This document shows, piece after piece, positions 44,845-64,000 of a DNA stretch of 64,000 nt. The DNA lies in NCBI GenBank assembly GCA_033764315.1, contig JANRJA010000018.1:1-64000 (forward strand), in the 5' to 3' direction. A model generated the notes under the pieces. That model ran no database searches, was not told where the DNA came from, and saw only the letters and a program-made list of their open reading frames with translations. The stretch comes from Oculatellaceae cyanobacterium bins.114 (GTDB taxonomy: Bacteria; Cyanobacteriota; Cyanobacteriia; Elainellales; Elainellaceae). The number at the start of each line of letters is the position of its first letter. Positions within the stretch are counted from its first letter, which is position 1. Position numbers and translations under genes: made by a program.

Positions 44845-44900
44845 TCAAAACACTCATCTCATGACTTTTGTGATAATGCGTGAACCGATGGAAACCAGTT

Positions 44901-45533
44901 ATGAACCCTGATTTACTTGATCGCCTCAAAGACCACCCTGATTTGCTCTCAGATGAGACTGATCAGCAATACACAATTACAAACGTGAGCTGGCAGGCAT
45001 ACGAAGCTCTGTTAGCCGATCTAGAGGATGATTTTCCAGGGTTGCGGGTTCACTATTGTGAGGGAACGCTTGAGATCACCATGCCAGGGCGCAAACACGA
45101 AGTTTTTAAGGACAACATTGGTGGGTTGCTGAGAGCCTATTTTGAGGAAACCCGGACTCGATTTTATGGATTAGGTTCAACTACGTTTAAGGTAGAAGCA
45201 AAACGTCGGGGGGCTGAACCGGATGTTTCCTTTTGTGTGGGCACTGATAAGGAATTTCCCGATATTGCCATTGAGGTGGTGCAAACCAGTGGCGGCATCG
45301 ATAAGTTAGCAGTTTATCTGGGGCTAAATGTTCCAGAAGTCTGGTTTTGGCAACATGGAGCCTTTCGGGTCTATCATCTGCGGGGCGATCGCTATGAGTT
45401 GGGCGATCGCAGTGAGTTTCTCCCCGATTTGGATTTAACTTTACTGGCAACTTATGTCCAATCGCCAGAGCCCCTGGATGCCGTCTTAGAATTTCGCGCT
45501 GCCATTCGCAATTTGTCTGGAGGAAAGCCATGA
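44901..45533 (+). CDS. Uma2-family PD-(D/E)xK endonuclease-like protein
   Basis: VSWQAYE, EPDVSF, PDIAIEV, VPEVWFW. Confidence 0.9.
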   Translation: MNPDLLDRLKDHPDLLSDETDQQYTITNVSWQAYEALLADLEDDFPGLRVHYCEGTLEITMPGRKHEVFKDNIGGLLRAYFEETRTRFYGLGSTTFKVEAKRRGAEPDVSFCVGTDKEFPDIAIEVVQTSGGIDKLAVYLGLNVPEVWFWQHGAFRVYHLRGDRYELGDRSEFLPDLDLTLLATYVQSPEPLDAVLEFRAAIRNLSGGKP

Positions 45534-46369: not shown

Positions 46370-47023
46370 CTATCTGGATGTCTGAAATTGGGCACGTAAG
46401 GCTTGCACTGCTTCAATTTCATCTTCTTTAGCGTGCGCCAAGAACTGATACAGCCACTCTTTCGGCACTGGTGGAAAAGTAGGACTGACTTCAAGTTCGA
46501 CGTAAACGCCTGCCTGAAGCTGATAAATTCGCCAGACCTGACCATTGAATCGCCAAAACTCAGGCACACCAACGGTGGCGTAAAACCGATTTTTCCGAAT
46601 ATCGGTATGGGTAATATCCACTTCAACCACTAAATCGGGTGGTGGATCATGAGCAAAATCGACATGGCGACCTTTAACCAAGGGTTGATTTTGAATGTAG
46701 TAGGCGTTGTCGGGTTCGGCTCCCTTTTGAAAGTTGGGATAATTCATCGTCGTTGAACCTATCGTTTTAACCCGCATTCCCAAGCACTCAATCAGTGTGA
46801 CAATGAAGCGTTCAATTAAGCTGCGATAGAATTCATGATCTTCTAAGGGCGTTGTAATTTCTAACATTCCCTCGTCGTAGGTAAGGCGAGAACTACGTGC
46901 TTGAGGCAGGGCATCTAAAATTTGCAGGTATGCCTCCCAGGACACGCCTCGAATCACCACCCGCTGTTCGCCAATGGGGGCGCGTTGTAGCTCAGTTGTG
47001 GGTTCGGGTGCTGCACTAACCAT
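46370..47023 (-). CDS. Uma2-family endonuclease-like protein
   Basis: VSWEAY, EPDNAYY, PPPDLVVEVD, GVPEFWR. Confidence 0.9.
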   Translation of the reverse strand: MVSAAPEPTTELQRAPIGEQRVVIRGVSWEAYLQILDALPQARSSRLTYDEGMLEITTPLEDHEFYRSLIERFIVTLIECLGMRVKTIGSTTMNYPNFQKGAEPDNAYYIQNQPLVKGRHVDFAHDPPPDLVVEVDITHTDIRKNRFYATVGVPEFWRFNGQVWRIYQLQAGVYVELEVSPTFPPVPKEWLYQFLAHAKEDEIEAVQALRAQFQTSR

Positions 47024-57246: not shown

Positions 57247-57377
57247 CCGATGGGGGAGTAGCAGAGACGTGATTAATCGCCTCTCTCCGAGTACAGACGC
57301 GATTGATTGCGCCTGTACGGAATGGGAAATTCCCCATTTCCTTAAGGAAAATGACACGGCATGATGGAGCAGCAGTC

Positions 57378-59747
57378 GTGGGTAAGGTCGTCGTCTTAAA
57401 ATTTGGAGAAGGTCGCTTTCAAGAAGGGTTTCTGGTCACATTGCAGATCGGAGAAGAAGGCGATCGCCCCTCAGTTGAAGTGACTGGCAGATTGCCTGCC
57501 GCTCCTGACCTGCTGCAAATTTATCAACGATGGCAACAGACCTATCGTCGATTGGGGGTGCCTTCTCGCCTCGAAGCCCCTGCTGCTCAAGTGACCAATG
57601 TTGCTCTTTCGGGTGATTGTGAGGAGGCAGCACACCAGTTGCGCGATCGCTTTAGTACCTGGCTGCAAGCCGAGTCATTTCGTCCGATTCGAGAAAAATG
57701 GTTAGAACAGCTCTCCCCCAGTGACGAAATTCGCGTGATCCTCCAGAGTGCTGACCCAGGCTTGCAATCTCTGCCCTGGCATCTGTGGGATTTGTTGGAG
57801 CGTTATTCTAAAGCGGAAGTTGCCCTCAGCATTCCCGCCTATGAACGGGTCAGTCAACCTCGTCTCCCCAGAGGCGTCGTCAGGATCTTAGCCATCTTGG
57901 GGAACAGCACGGGGATTGACGTCCAAGCCGATCGCCGCTTATTAGAGCAGCTCCCGGATGCCGAAATCTCCTTCCTCGTCGAGCCGCAACGCCAAGACTT
58001 AACCGACCGTTTGTGGGAGCAACGCTGGGATATTTTGTTTTTTGCCGGACATAGCGTCACTCAAAAAAATGGTGAGGCAGGACAAATTCACATCAACCCC
58101 ACTGAGAGCCTGACCATTAGTCAACTGCGCTATGCCCTCAAAAAAGCAATGGAACGGGGGTTAAAGTTAGCGATTTTTAACTCCTGCGATGGGTTAGGGT
58201 TAGCCCGCGAACTGGCAGACTTGCATATCCCGCAGTTGGTAGTGATGCGCGAATCAGTGCCTGACCGCGTGGCTCAAGCATTTCTAAAATACTTTTTAGC
58301 CGCTTTTTCTAAAGGGCGATCGCTTTATTTGGCAGTGCGTGAGGGACGCGAACGCTTGCAAGCCCTAGAAGAACAATTTCCTTGTGCCACCTGGCTGCCT
58401 GTAATTTTTCAAAACCCGGCAGAGATGCCCTTTACCTGGCACAGTTTAACCGGAAGGCAGTATTTTGATACAGCGATTCGAGATCTGTTACAGTCACCGC
58501 GATCGCCCCACACATCTCACGGGCAACCCTCTCTCAAGCGATCGCTGATCAGCAGTCTGGTGGCGGCTATCCTCTTGACTGGGATGCGATATCTAGGACT
58601 GTTGCAGGGAATGGAGCTGGCGGTTTTTGACCGGATGTTGAGCTTGCGACCAGACGAAGGCACCGATCCTCGGATTTTGTTGATCACGATTGATGACAAC
58701 GACATTCAGTCTCAACAAGAACGCACAGGCTCTCTCTCAGAGCCAAGCCTACAAGCCCTGCTCGACAAACTAGCACCCCATCACCCACGAGTCATTGGGC
58801 TGGATGTCTACCGCGATTTCTCAGTAGAGCAAGCAGACCTTGCCACTCGCTTGCAACAAACGGAATCTCTCATTGCCATTTGTAAGGCGGGTGATCCAGA
58901 TGGCAACGCCAAAGGCATTGCTCCACCGCCAGAGGTGCCTGCTTCACGGATTGGGTTCAGCGATTTTGTCGAAGATGACGATGGCAGTGTGCGTCGTCAC
59001 CTGCTGTTTATGAGTGCTGATCCAGCTTCACGGTGCACAACCCCCTATGCCTTTAGCACCCAAATTGCCTTTCAATATTTAGTGGCAGAAGGCATCGTTC
59101 CTACCTTTACTCAAGATAAAGATTTGCGGTTTGGCGACACCGTGTTTTACAGCTTGCGATCGCGATCGGGTGGATATCAAGCGATTGACGCGAGAGGGAG
59201 CCAAATTCTGCTCAATTATCGTTCTACCGACCGAATTGCCGCCCAAGTATCGCTCACCCAGGTTTTGCATAACGAGGTTGATCTGAGTGTTGTCCGTGAC
59301 AAAATTGTCCTGATTGGGGTCACAGCTTATAGTGCTGGTGATTATTGGGTCACACCCTATGGCACCAGTTCTGCTGAAAAGCTGTCAGGAGTCGAGGTGC
59401 AAGCTCACATGATTAGCCAGATGTTGAGTGCTGTCTTGGACGATCGCCCCTTATTGTGGGTTTGGAATGTCTGGGTTGACGTGATCTGGATCGGCACTTG
59501 GGCCGTGATCGGTGGCTTGCTAGCTTGGCGGATTCACTCGTTTCCCTACTTGGGGCTAGCGATCGCCATCTTCTCTAGTCTGCTCGGTGGTGTTAGTGTC
59601 GCTGTCCTGATCCACGGCGGATGGCTGCCCGTCGTGCCTGCTATTTTAGCCATGACTGGCAGTGGCATGCTTGTCTTGCTAACTCGCCCAACTGTAGCCC
59701 TAAGTGCGTCTGCCTCGACCTCTGCCCCCACTCAAAAACCTTTCTAA
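57378..59747 (+). CDS. CHAT (caspase/HetF-like) protease domain + TM + CHASE2 sensor + 3 TM
   Basis: FFAGHS and IFNSCDGLG catalytic His/Cys; CHASE2 motifs IGLDVYRD, DDDGSVRR, KIVLIG, GVEVQA; GTG 57378. Confidence 0.88.
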   Translation: MGKVVVLKFGEGRFQEGFLVTLQIGEEGDRPSVEVTGRLPAAPDLLQIYQRWQQTYRRLGVPSRLEAPAAQVTNVALSGDCEEAAHQLRDRFSTWLQAESFRPIREKWLEQLSPSDEIRVILQSADPGLQSLPWHLWDLLERYSKAEVALSIPAYERVSQPRLPRGVVRILAILGNSTGIDVQADRRLLEQLPDAEISFLVEPQRQDLTDRLWEQRWDILFFAGHSVTQKNGEAGQIHINPTESLTISQLRYALKKAMERGLKLAIFNSCDGLGLARELADLHIPQLVVMRESVPDRVAQAFLKYFLAAFSKGRSLYLAVREGRERLQALEEQFPCATWLPVIFQNPAEMPFTWHSLTGRQYFDTAIRDLLQSPRSPHTSHGQPSLKRSLISSLVAAILLTGMRYLGLLQGMELAVFDRMLSLRPDEGTDPRILLITIDDNDIQSQQERTGSLSEPSLQALLDKLAPHHPRVIGLDVYRDFSVEQADLATRLQQTESLIAICKAGDPDGNAKGIAPPPEVPASRIGFSDFVEDDDGSVRRHLLFMSADPASRCTTPYAFSTQIAFQYLVAEGIVPTFTQDKDLRFGDTVFYSLRSRSGGYQAIDARGSQILLNYRSTDRIAAQVSLTQVLHNEVDLSVVRDKIVLIGVTAYSAGDYWVTPYGTSSAEKLSGVEVQAHMISQMLSAVLDDRPLLWVWNVWVDVIWIGTWAVIGGLLAWRIHSFPYLGLAIAIFSSLLGGVSVAVLIHGGWLPVVPAILAMTGSGMLVLLTRPTVALSASASTSAPTQKPF

Positions 59748-59752
59748 CTGTT

Positions 59753-60571
59753 ATGAAATATCGCGCGGCGATCGCCCTTATCCTGCTCAGTTTAATGCCC
59801 GTCACAGCCCCTGTTTTGGCATATCCGACCTTGGCTCAATCCCTTCTAAAACAAACCCCTCCTCCGCCGCCTGATCGGGGTGCTCCGGGCGATCGCCTGC
59901 GAGGTGGAGCCGTCTGGTACACTCCCCCTGCACCCCCTGACCGAGGTATGCCAGAAGGACGCACGAGAGGCGGAGCCAGTCGGGGCAATTGCCCACCCTC
60001 TGTTCAATCATTGACAGCCCTTGCCCCCTCTACCCCAGTCAATACCCCGGTCACTCGAAATTCAGTTTGGGGCTTAACCACCGTTGAGCATCCTACCTTT
60101 TGGTTCTACGTTCCCTATGCAGCCACTCCTGACTTGCCTATGGAGTTTGTTTTGCTAGACGAACAAGACACCCTGATTTATCAGACTGATTTAACCGTGA
60201 CCAGCCCTGCGGGAGTGATTAACATTACCCTGCCCCCTACTGCGCCACCCCTAGAAGTCGGCAAAATGTATCGCTGGTATTTTCTGGTTTACTGTAGTCC
60301 CGAAAATCCCATCTTCACGCAAGGTGGCATTCAGCGCATGACTCCCACCCCAGAATTGGCGACTGCTTTACTGCAAGCTGACCCACGAGAGCAGGCAGCC
60401 CTCTATGCCTCTAATGGCGTCTGGTTTGATGCCCTCACCACAATGGCAAGACTACGACAGGCAGAACCCAACAATCCGGCGATCGCCACTGACTGGACAA
60501 GCCTACTGCAATCAGGGGGCTTAGAGGATGTCGCCCGACAACCTTTTGCCCCCTGTTGCACTCCTCACTAG
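59753..60571 (+). CDS. DUF928-family secreted protein
   Basis: Signal peptide; RGGASRG.C, PTFWFYVPY, LEVGKMYRW, YASNGVWFDAL, WTSLLQS. Confidence 0.85.
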   Translation: MKYRAAIALILLSLMPVTAPVLAYPTLAQSLLKQTPPPPPDRGAPGDRLRGGAVWYTPPAPPDRGMPEGRTRGGASRGNCPPSVQSLTALAPSTPVNTPVTRNSVWGLTTVEHPTFWFYVPYAATPDLPMEFVLLDEQDTLIYQTDLTVTSPAGVINITLPPTAPPLEVGKMYRWYFLVYCSPENPIFTQGGIQRMTPTPELATALLQADPREQAALYASNGVWFDALTTMARLRQAEPNNPAIATDWTSLLQSGGLEDVARQPFAPCCTPH

Positions 60572-60883
60572 GGCAGAGAGCAGGGACTCAACACAGCTAC
60601 TAACCCGACATCTCGGCATCAGCATAGCCAGATGCAAGCAGAAGAGCAGCAATTGCCAGTTTGAAAATCGGTTTGTTAGACCTGAGACAGACTTGCGCAA
60701 CCCCCGGTATGTTGAGAGAGTGGTAGACCGTGAACCCCACCTAAATCGTGAGCAGGTAAGCAGGGTGCTAGCCGCAAATCATCGGTGCTGCATAGCGCAA
60801 AGTTATCAATTGGCATCCAAGATAAAGTTGCTATGTATCTCCTTAGGAACCAGAAAATAGGCGGAAAGATTCTTGCTATTTAG

Positions 60884-61012
60884 CTTAAACGACAATTATG
60901 CGGAAATAATCTATATAAGTAGTAGATTTGGGCGTTAGGCATGAATCATGCTGCCTATCTACCCCAAATTGGGATCTTAGGCAGAAAATTTCAGTCTAAT
61001 AACTTGTTAGGC
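60884..61012 (+). other. attC-like recombination site 1 (degenerate, 129 bp)
   Basis: CTTAAAC...GTTAGGC ends, partly complementary arms (ATTATGCGGAAA / TTTCAGTCTAAT), internal palindromes. Confidence 0.5.
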
Positions 61013-61139
61013 GCAATCATTGGAGAACTCTTTTAGAAGAGCGCAATTATTAACCCAGCAATCAAAGTCGTAAAGGAAGATTCAGTGCTTTAGGGGACTC
61101 CAAGCTAAAAAATGCTAGAACAACGGGTACCAATTTAAT

Positions 61140-61859
61140 ATGACAAATCCCAGCAAAGAATCTATTGCTGTCCAAATTTCGCCTTCAACTAAGACGGTTG
61201 GATTCTGGTCTGCGGTACTTGCTACAGCGTTCAGCATCACATACATCGTGGGACAATTTGCCGAATGGTTGGGACTAATGGGGTCTCAAGGAGGTCCCGC
61301 GAGTGGTAGTACGCCTTTTGGGCTGGTGGTATTGCTAACACCGTCACTCTTCCTTGGTTCCTCGTTTCTCGTGCTTGTCGTGAGCATTCACCAACTGACG
61401 CCTCCCGACAGAAGAATCTGGAGTCATGCTGCCGTTGTATTCGCTACCATTTACGCAGTCCTGATCAGCATTGTCTACTTTGTTCAGCTCACGCTCGTTG
61501 CACCTCGTGTTGCTCACGGGCAGATCGAAGGCATTGAGGCGTTTCTATTTGTGCCCTTCGATTCATTTCTGTATTCCGTGGATATTCTTGGGTACAGCTT
61601 CATGAGTGTGGCTACCTTGTTTGCTGCACAGGTATTTACGGGTAGCGGGTTATATCGGGTTGTGCGGTTGTTTCTGATCACAAATGGGTTGTTACTTCCC
61701 TTCATCGCGCTACAAATATATTTCCATTCGTTGATATGGGTTGCAGCACTTTGGGCAGTGACGTTTCCGGGATCAACGTGGACACTTGCTATCCTCTTTC
61801 GACGTACTGCAACTACAGGAACTATTCCTAACAGTTCGGTGGATGAGACTCAGGAGTAG
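61140..61859 (+). CDS. multi-TM hypothetical membrane protein (cassette 1)
   Basis: 239 aa, about 6 TM; no HIP1 site noticed; stop 17 bp before attC2. Confidence 0.85.
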   Translation: MTNPSKESIAVQISPSTKTVGFWSAVLATAFSITYIVGQFAEWLGLMGSQGGPASGSTPFGLVVLLTPSLFLGSSFLVLVVSIHQLTPPDRRIWSHAAVVFATIYAVLISIVYFVQLTLVAPRVAHGQIEGIEAFLFVPFDSFLYSVDILGYSFMSVATLFAAQVFTGSGLYRVVRLFLITNGLLLPFIALQIYFHSLIWVAALWAVTFPGSTWTLAILFRRTATTGTIPNSSVDETQE

Positions 61860-61876
61860 CAAAATAGTCGCCTTGC

Positions 61877-61963
61877 GCCTAACAACCGCGCTGCACCGGA
61901 ACGTTTCAGTATGGTCGGTTTGTTGCGAAGGTTGTTTGCGTCCGGTGAGCGCGACCGTTATGC
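61877..61963 (+). other. integron attC site (87 bp)
   Basis: R'' GCCTAAC, 5 nt, L'' CGCTGCAC ... L' GTGAGCG, 5 nt, R' GTTATGC; extended stem with one extrahelical base. Confidence 0.85.
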
Positions 61964-62113
61964 TGCCTCAAGTTATCTGTGGGAGCGCAAGCTGAAATCT
62001 CTCTGTGAGACACAGTGCCCAAGTAGCGATGAGTTTTTTGCTGAGACGCAATTGGGAGGTGATCGGTAAGCTACAATTCCTAATAGATTATTCTTTTCAT
62101 CGCAGGTTGGGTA

Positions 62114-62404
62114 GTGCGAAAACAGGAAGTCCTGACATTACTGGTAAAGCACCAAAACACGCTGAAGGATTTTGGCGTAAAGTCTCTGATGCTGTTCGGC
62201 TCAGTGGCAAGAGATGAAGCGCGAACAGACAGCGATGTTGATCTGCTAGTAGAGTTTGATCGTCCGGTCGGGCTGTTTGCCTTTGTACGCTTGAAACGAT
62301 ACCTGGAAGAGATTTTAGAGAGTTCAGTTGATCTGGGTACGCCCGACTCCCTCAAACCTTATTTACGAGAACCCATTTTTCGGGAGGCGATTCGTGCCTT
62401 CTAG
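62114..62404 (+). CDS. minimal nucleotidyltransferase antitoxin (MntA-like)
   Basis: FGSVARDEARTDSDVDLLVEF (GSX10DXD). Confidence 0.92.
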   Translation: MRKQEVLTLLVKHQNTLKDFGVKSLMLFGSVARDEARTDSDVDLLVEFDRPVGLFAFVRLKRYLEEILESSVDLGTPDSLKPYLREPIFREAIRAF

Positions 62405-62732
62405 AGATTGGCAAAATCGAGTAAGGGATGTACTAGCCGCGATCGCAGAAATCCGAGAGTTCACCAACGAAATAACCTTTGAGGAATTTCAGAGCGATCG
62501 CAAAACAATCAGAGCAGTTTTGTATAACTTTGCAATCATTGGTGAAGCAGTTCGTGGCATTCCGCCTGATGTAGAAGCGTTACATCCTGAAATTCCCTGG
62601 GACGATGTACGTGGAATGCGAAATATTGTGATTCACGAGTATTTTCAGGTGAATCTATCGATCATCTGGCAAACGATTCAAGAAGACATTGTTTTATTAG
62701 AGATCTCGCTTCGTCAACTAATAAACCCTTAA
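62394..62732 (+). CDS. HEPN/DUF86 RNase toxin (HepT-like)
   Basis: IIGEA, PEIPW, GMRNIVIHEY (RX4HXY); GTG overlapping the MNT stop. Confidence 0.92.
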   Translation: MPSRDWQNRVRDVLAAIAEIREFTNEITFEEFQSDRKTIRAVLYNFAIIGEAVRGIPPDVEALHPEIPWDDVRGMRNIVIHEYFQVNLSIIWQTIQEDIVLLEISLRQLINP

Positions 62733-62773
62733 GCCCGATTGATTACGCTGTTAACTTTAGTAGATGAGCTTAG

Positions 62774-63235
62774 ATGCAACAGTCAGAGGATGCGAATACA
62801 CCGAAACCATTGAGCCGAGTACAACGCTGGGAAATAGTACGAACTTTGCTACAACGTGAAAACTTGAGAATTGAGGCAAGAGAGGCATTTCGTCAGGCTT
62901 ATCCCAATGCCCCAGAGGAGATGCTAACAACGGCTGTTTTTCATACTTGCGTTGATGGAATTGGAGCCGCAATAGATTGGCTAGTTGATTTAGAACTATT
63001 TTTACGTGAACCGAGTCGAGAACTTGATATGGGTACCACATATTACCTGTTGTACCATCTTTACAATTGGTATCAGTTTCATGTATTGCTTCCAGATGGA
63101 AGGACAGGCGTGTTAGAACGTCTTAAAGAAATTAGGGAGTTGATTGCAGATGGAGAGATAGAGGCAATTCTTGCAACAGTTGAGGAGTTAGAAGCGATGT
63201 TTGAAGGTGGTCGAAATAATCCTGATTTTCAGTAA
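62774..63235 (+). CDS. hypothetical protein (cassette 2)
   Basis: 153-aa ORF; stop 6 bp before an R''-like ACATAAC. Confidence 0.75.
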   Translation: MQQSEDANTPKPLSRVQRWEIVRTLLQRENLRIEAREAFRQAYPNAPEEMLTTAVFHTCVDGIGAAIDWLVDLELFLREPSRELDMGTTYYLLYHLYNWYQFHVLLPDGRTGVLERLKEIRELIADGEIEAILATVEELEAMFEGGRNNPDFQ

Positions 63236-63241
63236 GCAGCA

Positions 63242-63268
63242 ACATAACATAGCCTCTGAGCCGGACGA
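63242..63268 (+). other. left half of a disrupted attC-like site 3
   Basis: ACATAAC-ATAGC-CTCTGAGCCGGACG resembles the attC2 left arm; no complementary right arm found. Confidence 0.55.
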
Positions 63269-63484
63269 GGTCAAGTAGATCTTGAAGAATTCTGTTCATT
63301 CTCATTGCTCATTACATACACAGACATGTTCATTTAACTGACTCTAAATATGGATTTACAGCATCTATTTTGGAGTCAGTTATTTTGTCTATTCGTGTTA
63401 TATTTTTTGGTGCTTTAGCGTCTTTTTACTTTGAATGGGAGTTAGGTTGCTGTGCTCATTCTCTTGCTTTAAGGATTGGCAATG

Positions 63485-64000
63485 TCATAGAGCTAATGGC
63501 TTAGCAATAGGAGATCCCTTGCGTTTTAAGGATGCAAGATATTTGGCTTCATCGTAGGCTTCCCGGTTCTTCCAACACCGAAACAAAATGCGAATCCACT
63601 TGAACGCCAGTGACCGCATCGCCGCGGGATGGGATTTGCCCTTAGACCGTTGCATCTGGTAATAAGCTTGTGCCCAGCCACAATGATGACGGCTGTGATT
63701 GGCCCACTCCACAAAGGTCTGTCTCAAGAAGATCGGACAACTCCAACGCCAATGCACCCAGTTCTTTTTGCCGCTACTCTCTTTAACCGGCGCAATACCG
63801 AAGTAGCACATCATCTGCTGGGCATTCTCAAAACGTGTCCTATCTTCTCCAAAAGCTGCCAGTAATCGCGGAGCCAGATGCTCTCCAGCCCCAGGTAGAG
63901 CCGCAAACCACGCCGCATCCGAAAAGCTGGTAAAGCACTGGTCAATTTTGAGCGTCAGTTCCACTAAGCTTGCCAACAGGGGCTTTAACTGACCGATCAA
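63485..64000 (-). mobile_element. IS110-family transposase/recombinase, C-terminal part (5' end outside the window)
   Basis: LPGAG..LA..LLA..G...RF, GIAPVKESSGK, AYYQ..R.KGK.H.AA.R.LAFKW.RIL (Transposase_20-type domain). Confidence 0.9.

Follow-up and report, generated by a model that had tools for sequence, protein, structure and literature searches.

Is a cassette-like array with no integrase gene beside it the remnant of a true integron and, if so, of which kind? This question is raised by the right-hand end of a 64,000-nt stretch of cyanobacterial DNA (positions 1 to 64,000 of contig JANRJA010000018.1, assembly GCA_033764315.1, from Oculatellaceae cyanobacterium bins.114; hereafter the window), where an initial annotation, made from the sequence without database searches, described an integron-type gene-cassette array at 60884-63268. 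A survey of the open reading frames (ORFs) and domains of the window confirmed the gene content described there, and all the sequence strings quoted in support of the array were found in place. Our analyses indicate that the locus is very probably a decayed chromosomal integron, which has kept its attI site and one intact cassette, has lost the integrase gene intI and carries an insertion sequence at its far end. The elements that bear most directly on this reading are as follows.

60806..61012, plus strand: attI-type region, homologue of an intI-attI intergenic region
60994..61012, plus strand: attI simple site, an imperfect inverted repeat (GTCTAAT-AACTT-GTTAGGC) kept in the Kovacikia plasmids pA and pB
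61007..61957, plus strand: cassette 1, 951 bp, comprising one ORF and its attC
61140..61859, plus strand: 239-aa membrane protein, the cargo of cassette 1; no Pfam or NCBIfam family
61877..61963, plus strand: attC site of 87 nt, with R'' GCCTAAC, a 15-bp L stem and R' GTTATGC

The site that closes cassette 1 had been credited with canonical attC geometry and one extrahelical base. Its R'' core, its hairpin and its identity as an attC all stand, but the description fails in two details. While R'' (GCCTAAC) agrees with RYYYAAC, R' (GTTATGC) has a T at position 5 and is no strict fit to GTTRRRY, and two bases bulge from the R''-L'' arm instead of one (top-strand G61893 and A61901, which are 8 nt apart). 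Bulges 8 nt apart are found in canonical attC sites too. The predicted hairpin is composed of a 7-bp R box, 3 + 3 unpaired nucleotides and then the 15-bp L stem. The R' tails also differ among the other members of the attC family to which this site belongs (GTTGTGC, GTTGAAC, GTTGACC, GTTAGAC and GTTAGCT), as expected if the tail belongs to the next cassette. A geometry scanner, written after the site had been seen, returned it as the sole match on both strands of the 64 kb, and stems of at least 13 bp with these cores arose in none of 150 Markov simulations of the window. The folding energy by itself does not stand out: of 200 shuffles, 29 did as well as the top strand (z = -1.08) and 14 as well as the bottom strand (z = -1.63). 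No Rfam family came near its threshold, the three matches having E values of 0.44-3.3.

The decisive evidence that 61877-61963 is genuine comes from its homologues. In a blastn search of a plasmid collection, 61878-61966 proved to have counterparts, with 80-84% identity, on five other cyanobacterial plasmids, namely pC052_E of Nostoc sp. C052, pA of Chroococcidiopsis sp. CCNUC1, two plasmids of Calothrix NIES-4101 and pB of Kovacikia minuta CCNUW1, with the pB match reaching 84% over 90 nt in local blastn. Each homologous site is located directly behind an ORF, and all close DNA matches to the recombination sites come from cyanobacteria. The similarity is confined to the stretch from R'' to R', with unrelated DNA on either side. 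Across five complete sites the 22 proposed base pairs are 90.9% paired, compared with 25-37% when the partner strand is slid by 1-3 columns, and three pairs show compensatory changes, such as GC/GC to AA/TT in Nostoc. A covariance model built from five sites, that of the window among them (model R1), recovered six further sites, each just behind an ORF: two in locus L026, one each in L025 and L022, a fourth pB site in L027 and a truncated site in L024. Applied to 265 kb of unrelated control loci, R1 found nothing at E<0.1. The window site has the highest R1 score of the family members (109.7 bits), a rank that is partly circular because the site is in the R1 training set, and a half-site profile trained without the window finds its 5' half at E = 1.5e-7. 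Judged by this homology, 61877-61963 is a genuine attC-type site.

At the other end of cassette 1, homology identifies an attI-type site that heads the array and that had gone unrecognised in the initial annotation. The reference here is plasmid pB of K. minuta CCNUW1 (NZ_CP083584.1), which carries a complete integron composed of intI (WP_224346711.1), attI and four cassettes, each ending in an attC of the same family. The pB IntI scores 468 bits on TIGR02249 (cut-off 265) and is ~50% identical to IntI1; its gene lies on the minus strand (L026 4986-5948), divergent from the cassettes. Window positions 60845-61010 are 82.1% identical over 168 nt to the pB sequence between intI and the first cassette (L026 6001-6164), and positions 60806-61013 are 78.7% identical over 211 nt to an intI-less copy on Kovacikia pA (L025 6001-6207). 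In a three-way alignment of the window, pA and pB, the identity persists up to GTTA (61006-61009) and is followed by complete divergence, a pattern expected of a recombination junction that is followed by a different first cassette in each copy. The homology to the pA and pB regions, together with this shared stop at GTTA, places an attI-type site in the window, membership of the attI class being assigned by homology only. The simple site was also picked up by R1 as a minimal R''/R' match, and the predicted crossover is between G61006 and T61007. The attI1 simple site likewise combines an L-like box, a short spacer and GTTAGGC, a likeness of layout and not of aligned sequence.

When a cassette integrates at G|TT, its first bases derive from its own attC and should hence be able to pair with its R''. 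In cassette 1, the first bases (GTTAGGCGCAA) are complementary to the R'' region of the cassette at 11/11 positions, and the pairing extends to 13/13 (61004-61016 with 61873-61885), so that the end-pairing pointed out earlier between 61006-61016 and 61873-61883 is real and longer than was claimed. Such an inverted repeat is not conclusive by itself, because an unrelated 13/13 repeat, I7, occurs in the same 3.5 kb. This second perfect repeat pairs 62145-62157, at the start of an MntA gene, with 63405-63417, in the non-coding region of the insertion sequence, and may be due to chance; part of it recurs as a 12-nt direct copy inside the transposase gene (63927-63938). The longest perfect complementarity runs between cassette starts and their own R'' were as follows.

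Window cassette 1: 11
Kovacikia pB cassettes 1-4: 11, 9, 8 and 7
Kovacikia pA cassette: 9
Window unit 2: 6 (9/10)
Chroococcidiopsis cassette: 3 (5/10)
Control, 56 pairs of starts with R'' regions not their own: mean 4.2, maximum 9

No integrase gene was found to accompany these sites. A tyrosine recombinase of the PF00589 type is absent from the 15 + 41 ORFs of the window and from four small upstream ORFs, and a tblastn search of the whole window with the Kovacikia IntI yielded no E value better than 0.34 and no match around 60500-60900. A CAT at 60791-60793 aligns with the start codon of the pB intI, and the similarity is then lost leftward. We infer that intI was lost by a deletion whose breakpoint lies close to the start codon. 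Loss of intI is described as common in the available portion of PMC2426708. On this reading, an integron integrase would once have been encoded just left of 60791 and would have inserted circular cassettes at attI, recombining between G61006 and T61007. One of these cassettes would have survived intact, with the membrane-protein gene and the 87-nt attC, the folded bottom strand of which would be the recombination substrate. Behind it would stand a second unit, formed by an MntA-HepT pair and an orphan of cyanobacteria only, and an insertion sequence of the IS110/IS1111 family would cut or conceal the far end of this unit. With the integrase gene deleted, the array would be static unless an IntI encoded elsewhere acts on it in trans.

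The locus had been called CALIN-like (a cluster of attC sites without an integron integrase). The window indeed contains neither intI nor a fragment of it, but the locus is not a plain CALIN, given its attI-type head and single attC. Since a homologue of the attI/promoter region found in a complete cyanobacterial integron stands at the head of the array, the locus is better described as an integron that has lost intI. It resembles the CALINs presented in the available text of Cury et al. (2016; PMC4889954) in having cassette DNA with attC and no integrase nearby, and loss of intI is one of the origins proposed there. However, the definition of a CALIN calls for two or more attC sites, located within 4 kb and with intI absent from the vicinity, while the window has one demonstrable attC and retains an attI-type site. 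Comparison with the Kovacikia pB integron reveals an attI region that is 82% identical, the same attC type, the same G|TT junction logic, multi-gene cassettes and neighbours of the X-CHASE2 + DUF928 kind. The window differs from pB in lacking intI, in having one demonstrable attC, in its apparently chromosomal setting and in a far end that is cut by an insertion sequence. The likeness to class 1 integrons (intI1/attI1) lies in the reference cyanobacterial IntI, with its ~50% identity to IntI1 and its divergent orientation, whereas the window lacks resistance genes as well as a Tn402 or 3'-CS context.

The membrane protein carried by cassette 1, for which the Atlas gives unnamed clusters only, has 2822 relatives at E<=1e-3. 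It was found at 20 loci from many phyla, with 58-77% identity (36% in one archaeal contig); the hosts among metagenome-assembled genomes include Myxococcales, Zixibacteria, Planctomycetes, Gemmatimonadota, Krumholzibacteriota, Gammaproteobacteria and others. Both its conservation and its spread are unusually strong and wide for an uncharacterised protein.

Downstream of the attC, the window contains a second unit and part of an insertion sequence.

61958..63238, plus strand: second unit, a putative cassette that starts at R' of the attC and abuts the insertion sequence
62114..62404, plus strand: MntA-type nucleotidyltransferase (antitoxin), PF01909 54.7 bits (cut-off 21)
62328..62732 as listed, plus strand: HepT-type HEPN RNase (toxin), PF01934 97.9 bits (cut-off 23.5)
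62774..63235, plus strand: 153-aa orphan protein, no family found
63239..64000, minus strand: right part of an insertion sequence, with a non-coding region (63239-63484) and the transposase C terminus (63485-64000); runs off the window

The adjacent MNT and HEPN genes are predicted to form a type VII MntA-HepT toxin-antitoxin pair, with NCBIfam scores (46.6 bits for MntA and 38.4 bits for HepT) that are both under the cut-off of 60. The true start of HepT is probably near the MntA stop. The orphan protein has 62 relatives, and all those with a named source are cyanobacterial.

Run with its filters off, R1 gave no further attC behind unit 2 within the window. The segment 63242-63268 was considered as a third attC, since 9/12 of its bases agree with the L'' of 61877-61963 at an equal offset. 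It was rejected: the profile trained without the window ranks 63243-63268 eighth (E = 14), and the segment can be aligned with the terminus of a related insertion sequence. The initial annotation had also drawn on a second end-pairing, between 61957-61966 and 63239-63248. Its count of 9/10 is right, but the partner, GCAACATAAC, is part of the right end of the insertion sequence. Since 63239-63277 is homologous to the related insertion-sequence end, this pairing is no evidence for a cassette boundary, and since the supposed R'' is insertion-sequence DNA, unit 2 is not shown to be a bounded cassette. Of the proposal that cassettes 1 and 2 are real mobile cassettes, what holds is that cassette 1 bears complementarity between its start and its own R''; the end-pairing proposed for unit 2 does not hold, and the mobility of either would be presumptive.

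The insertion sequence itself is putatively assigned to the IS110/IS1111 family. The C terminus of its transposase scores 61.5 bits on PF02371 and 74.7 bits on the NCBIfam IS110 model, below the cut-off of 140 for what is a partial protein, and is followed by 246 nt of non-coding DNA. Its nearest plasmid relative is an IS110-family element on pLBX of Leptolyngbya boryana (L029), with a protein that is 60% identical. Between the post-transposase regions of the two elements, the best local alignment is at 63239-63277 (28/39 identical), a value reached by 1 of 500 shuffles. The L. boryana block holds one arm of a 10-bp inverted repeat, the partner of which is located beyond the transposase start (12 of 500 shuffles match). 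This repeat fits the subterminal inverted repeats of 11-13 bp that IS1111-type elements have according to the available part of PMC11187229, and by analogy with the L. boryana element a subterminal repeat may be present in the window element as well. With ISKpn4 and ISPst6, the attC-targeting IS1111-family elements treated in the same part of PMC11187229, the window element has in common a DEDD-family transposase C terminus, a long downstream non-coding region and a position at the end of an array. It is seen, however, without its left end and N-terminal domain, which are beyond the window, and the attC targeting is a property of ISKpn4 and ISPst6.

Two features of the right end of the element were also noted. 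An outward promoter-like sequence, TTGAC(C/T)-17 nt-TATGTT, is present at 63246-63274 on the minus strand (window copy TTGACC-17-TATGTT) and at L029 3757-3785. It has been kept although the transposases are only 60% identical, and it could drive the transposase after circle formation or read into neighbouring genes. In addition, the right end (63239-63266) resembles the attC 5' half (61879-61902), with TAAC, 5 nt and CNCTGNNCCGGA (9/12 matching). This resemblance is weaker in the L. boryana element, and the half-site profile value for it (E = 14) is not significant. There is no attC in the flanks of the L. boryana element, where the best match is 12.8 bits. A guide-RNA logic for the target of the window element was dropped, the flank and the non-coding region sharing one 7-mer where, by our own estimate, about two would be expected by chance.

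Several observations weigh against the view of this locus as a decayed integron. The own-R' signature fails in one of the eight cassettes tested, that of Chroococcidiopsis, and in unit 2 of the window the perfect run is only 6 (9/10), with insertion-sequence DNA as the partner. Three detectors (the geometry scanner, R1 with filters off and the half-site profile) agree on one attC only in the window. The possible remnant of the intI start codon rests on weak similarity to pB. A simple sigma-70 scan of 60560-63500 found no plus-strand promoter-like site that might serve as the cassette promoter Pc, and three on the minus strand compared with 5.1 expected. Finally, an attC-like site was found beside the membrane-protein gene in none of the 20 loci of other phyla (170 nt after the stop codon read, with the scanner and with R1); thus, the gene is not generally cassette-borne.

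Alternatively, the 87-nt element could be a cyanobacterial repeat that merely looks like an attC, be it a miniature inverted-repeat transposable element (MITE), a palindrome like the repetitive extragenic palindromic (REP) sequences or a terminator, with a coincidental inverted repeat around it. The folding energy is not significantly better than that of shuffles, another 13/13 repeat, I7, occurs within the same 3.5 kb, perhaps by chance, and on four of the six other replicons (Kovacikia pA, Chroococcidiopsis pA and both Calothrix plasmids) there is no IntI within 6-8 kb. Nevertheless, we regard this explanation as highly improbable. In Kovacikia pB, four copies of the element make up an array directly behind an IntI gene and attI; the AAC and GTT cores mark the exact limits of the homology; the pairing of the stem is kept by compensatory changes; and no family reached its Rfam threshold. 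Moreover, the complementarity to the own R' seen in seven of eight cases is predicted neither by a MITE nor by a terminator. If the locus is a decayed integron, it might yet be a live satellite array, with IntI from elsewhere in the genome or from a plasmid still excising and reinserting cassettes in trans. The stem, bulges and cores of the attC are intact and its score is the highest of the family, the attI simple site is conserved, and related attCs are found on the five plasmids named above. In addition, half of the published CALINs share a replicon with IntI, and trans mobilisation has been proposed, as stated in the available text of PMC4889954. Set against this, no IntI is encoded in the 64-kb window and the 109.7-bit score is partly circular, and present activity of this kind seems to us rather unlikely.

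The status of unit 2 bears on how far the array once extended. It could be a true cassette with the insertion sequence lodged in the R'' end of its attC, in which case the rest of that attC would be beyond the element, outside the window. The non-coding region downstream of the transposase and a G-I-x-P-x4-S-G motif fit the IS1111 type, the element begins 3-5 nt past the stop codon of the last ORF, at the place expected for the start of an attC, and GCAGC (63236-63240) equals the outer bases of the R'' that the start of unit 2 predicts. However, the boundary is uncertain by ~3 nt and two of the five GCAGC bases are within the block homologous to the insertion sequence. The related element of L. 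boryana does not sit in an attC, and the guide-like match between flank and non-coding region is the single 7-mer noted above, below the chance estimate. We therefore put forward a cassette origin of unit 2 only tentatively, as a possibility with the odds against it, and retain the decayed integron with one intact cassette as the preferred description of the locus.

In the initial annotation, a cyanobacterial array with its own attC types was considered notable. As a claim of novelty, this was overstated. Integrons in Cyanobacteria were reported between 2007 and 2016 (PMC2426708 and PMC4889954), and a Cyanobacteria-specific attC covariance model, built from chromosomal attCs, already exists (PMC8352920), as the portions available of these three papers state. 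In the one literature collection searched, no paper devoted to cyanobacterial integron biology was found. The locus leaves the known workings of integrons unchanged. What it offers is an integron caught decaying on an apparent cyanobacterial chromosome, and it connects cassettes on a chromosome with an integron on a plasmid and with related arrays that distant cyanobacteria carry on their plasmids, a link that suggests gene exchange across cyanobacterial orders via one attC type. It also flags as cassette cargo a widespread and strongly conserved membrane protein to which no function is assigned. A broader synthesis, which we consider doubtful and well short of probable, would have cyanobacteria of at least three orders, filamentous and coccoid, share one cassette pool marked by one attC type, with IS110/IS1111-type elements that may terminate arrays. 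If so, the shared attC type (80-84% identity) would span Leptolyngbyales, Nostocales and Chroococcidiopsidales, on plasmids and chromosomes alike. The right ends of the elements (TAAC, 5 nt, CNCTG) would mimic the attC 5' half, and the elements would insert into attC ends or pass for them, thereby capping or decapitating arrays. The window would then show both outcomes of decay together, with integrase loss on one side and capping by an insertion sequence on the other.

Two other replicons of the collection carry decayed integrons. On Kovacikia pA (L025 6001-8050), an attI-type region is followed by a ParE-like/DUF3800 cassette and an attC, with no IntI within 6 kb, and on Nostoc pC052_E (L021 6676-8086), C-terminal IntI fragments only are found beside a DUF4365 cassette with its attC. 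At the end of the array on Kovacikia pB (L027 25150-25170), the sequence past R' of the last attC, GTTAGCTGGCTTCA, is a second copy of the opening 14 nt of pB cassette 1 and looks like a duplication of the start of that cassette.

The surroundings of the array in the window comprise the following genes.

Left of the array: a DUF1822 gene, a CHAT-CHASE2 gene and a DUF928 gene ending at 60571, followed by a gap
57303-60571: effector-CHASE2 + DUF928 gene pair

The setting of the remnant is apparently chromosomal, amid housekeeping genes. The GC content is 0.38-0.49 across 60800-63500, compared with ~0.53 elsewhere in the window, a drop that favours the integron reading. The HIP1 octamer GCGATCGC, a cyanobacterial marker, is present in the window. 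The CHAT-CHASE2 and DUF928 genes have a counterpart in the TIR-CHASE2 and DUF928 genes beside the Kovacikia pB integron (L026 1-3696), in a different orientation. The CHASE2 parts are 39% identical and the DUF928 proteins 27%, and the shared pairing may be a coincidence; common ancestry of the DUF928 neighbours was dropped, given 27% identity only. Further to the left, two genes for putative restriction endonucleases of the Uma2 family (44880-45533 and 46370-47023) lie around an ORF of 277 aa without a family, and the pair is located directly downstream of a large SNF2/DUF3670 helicase gene.

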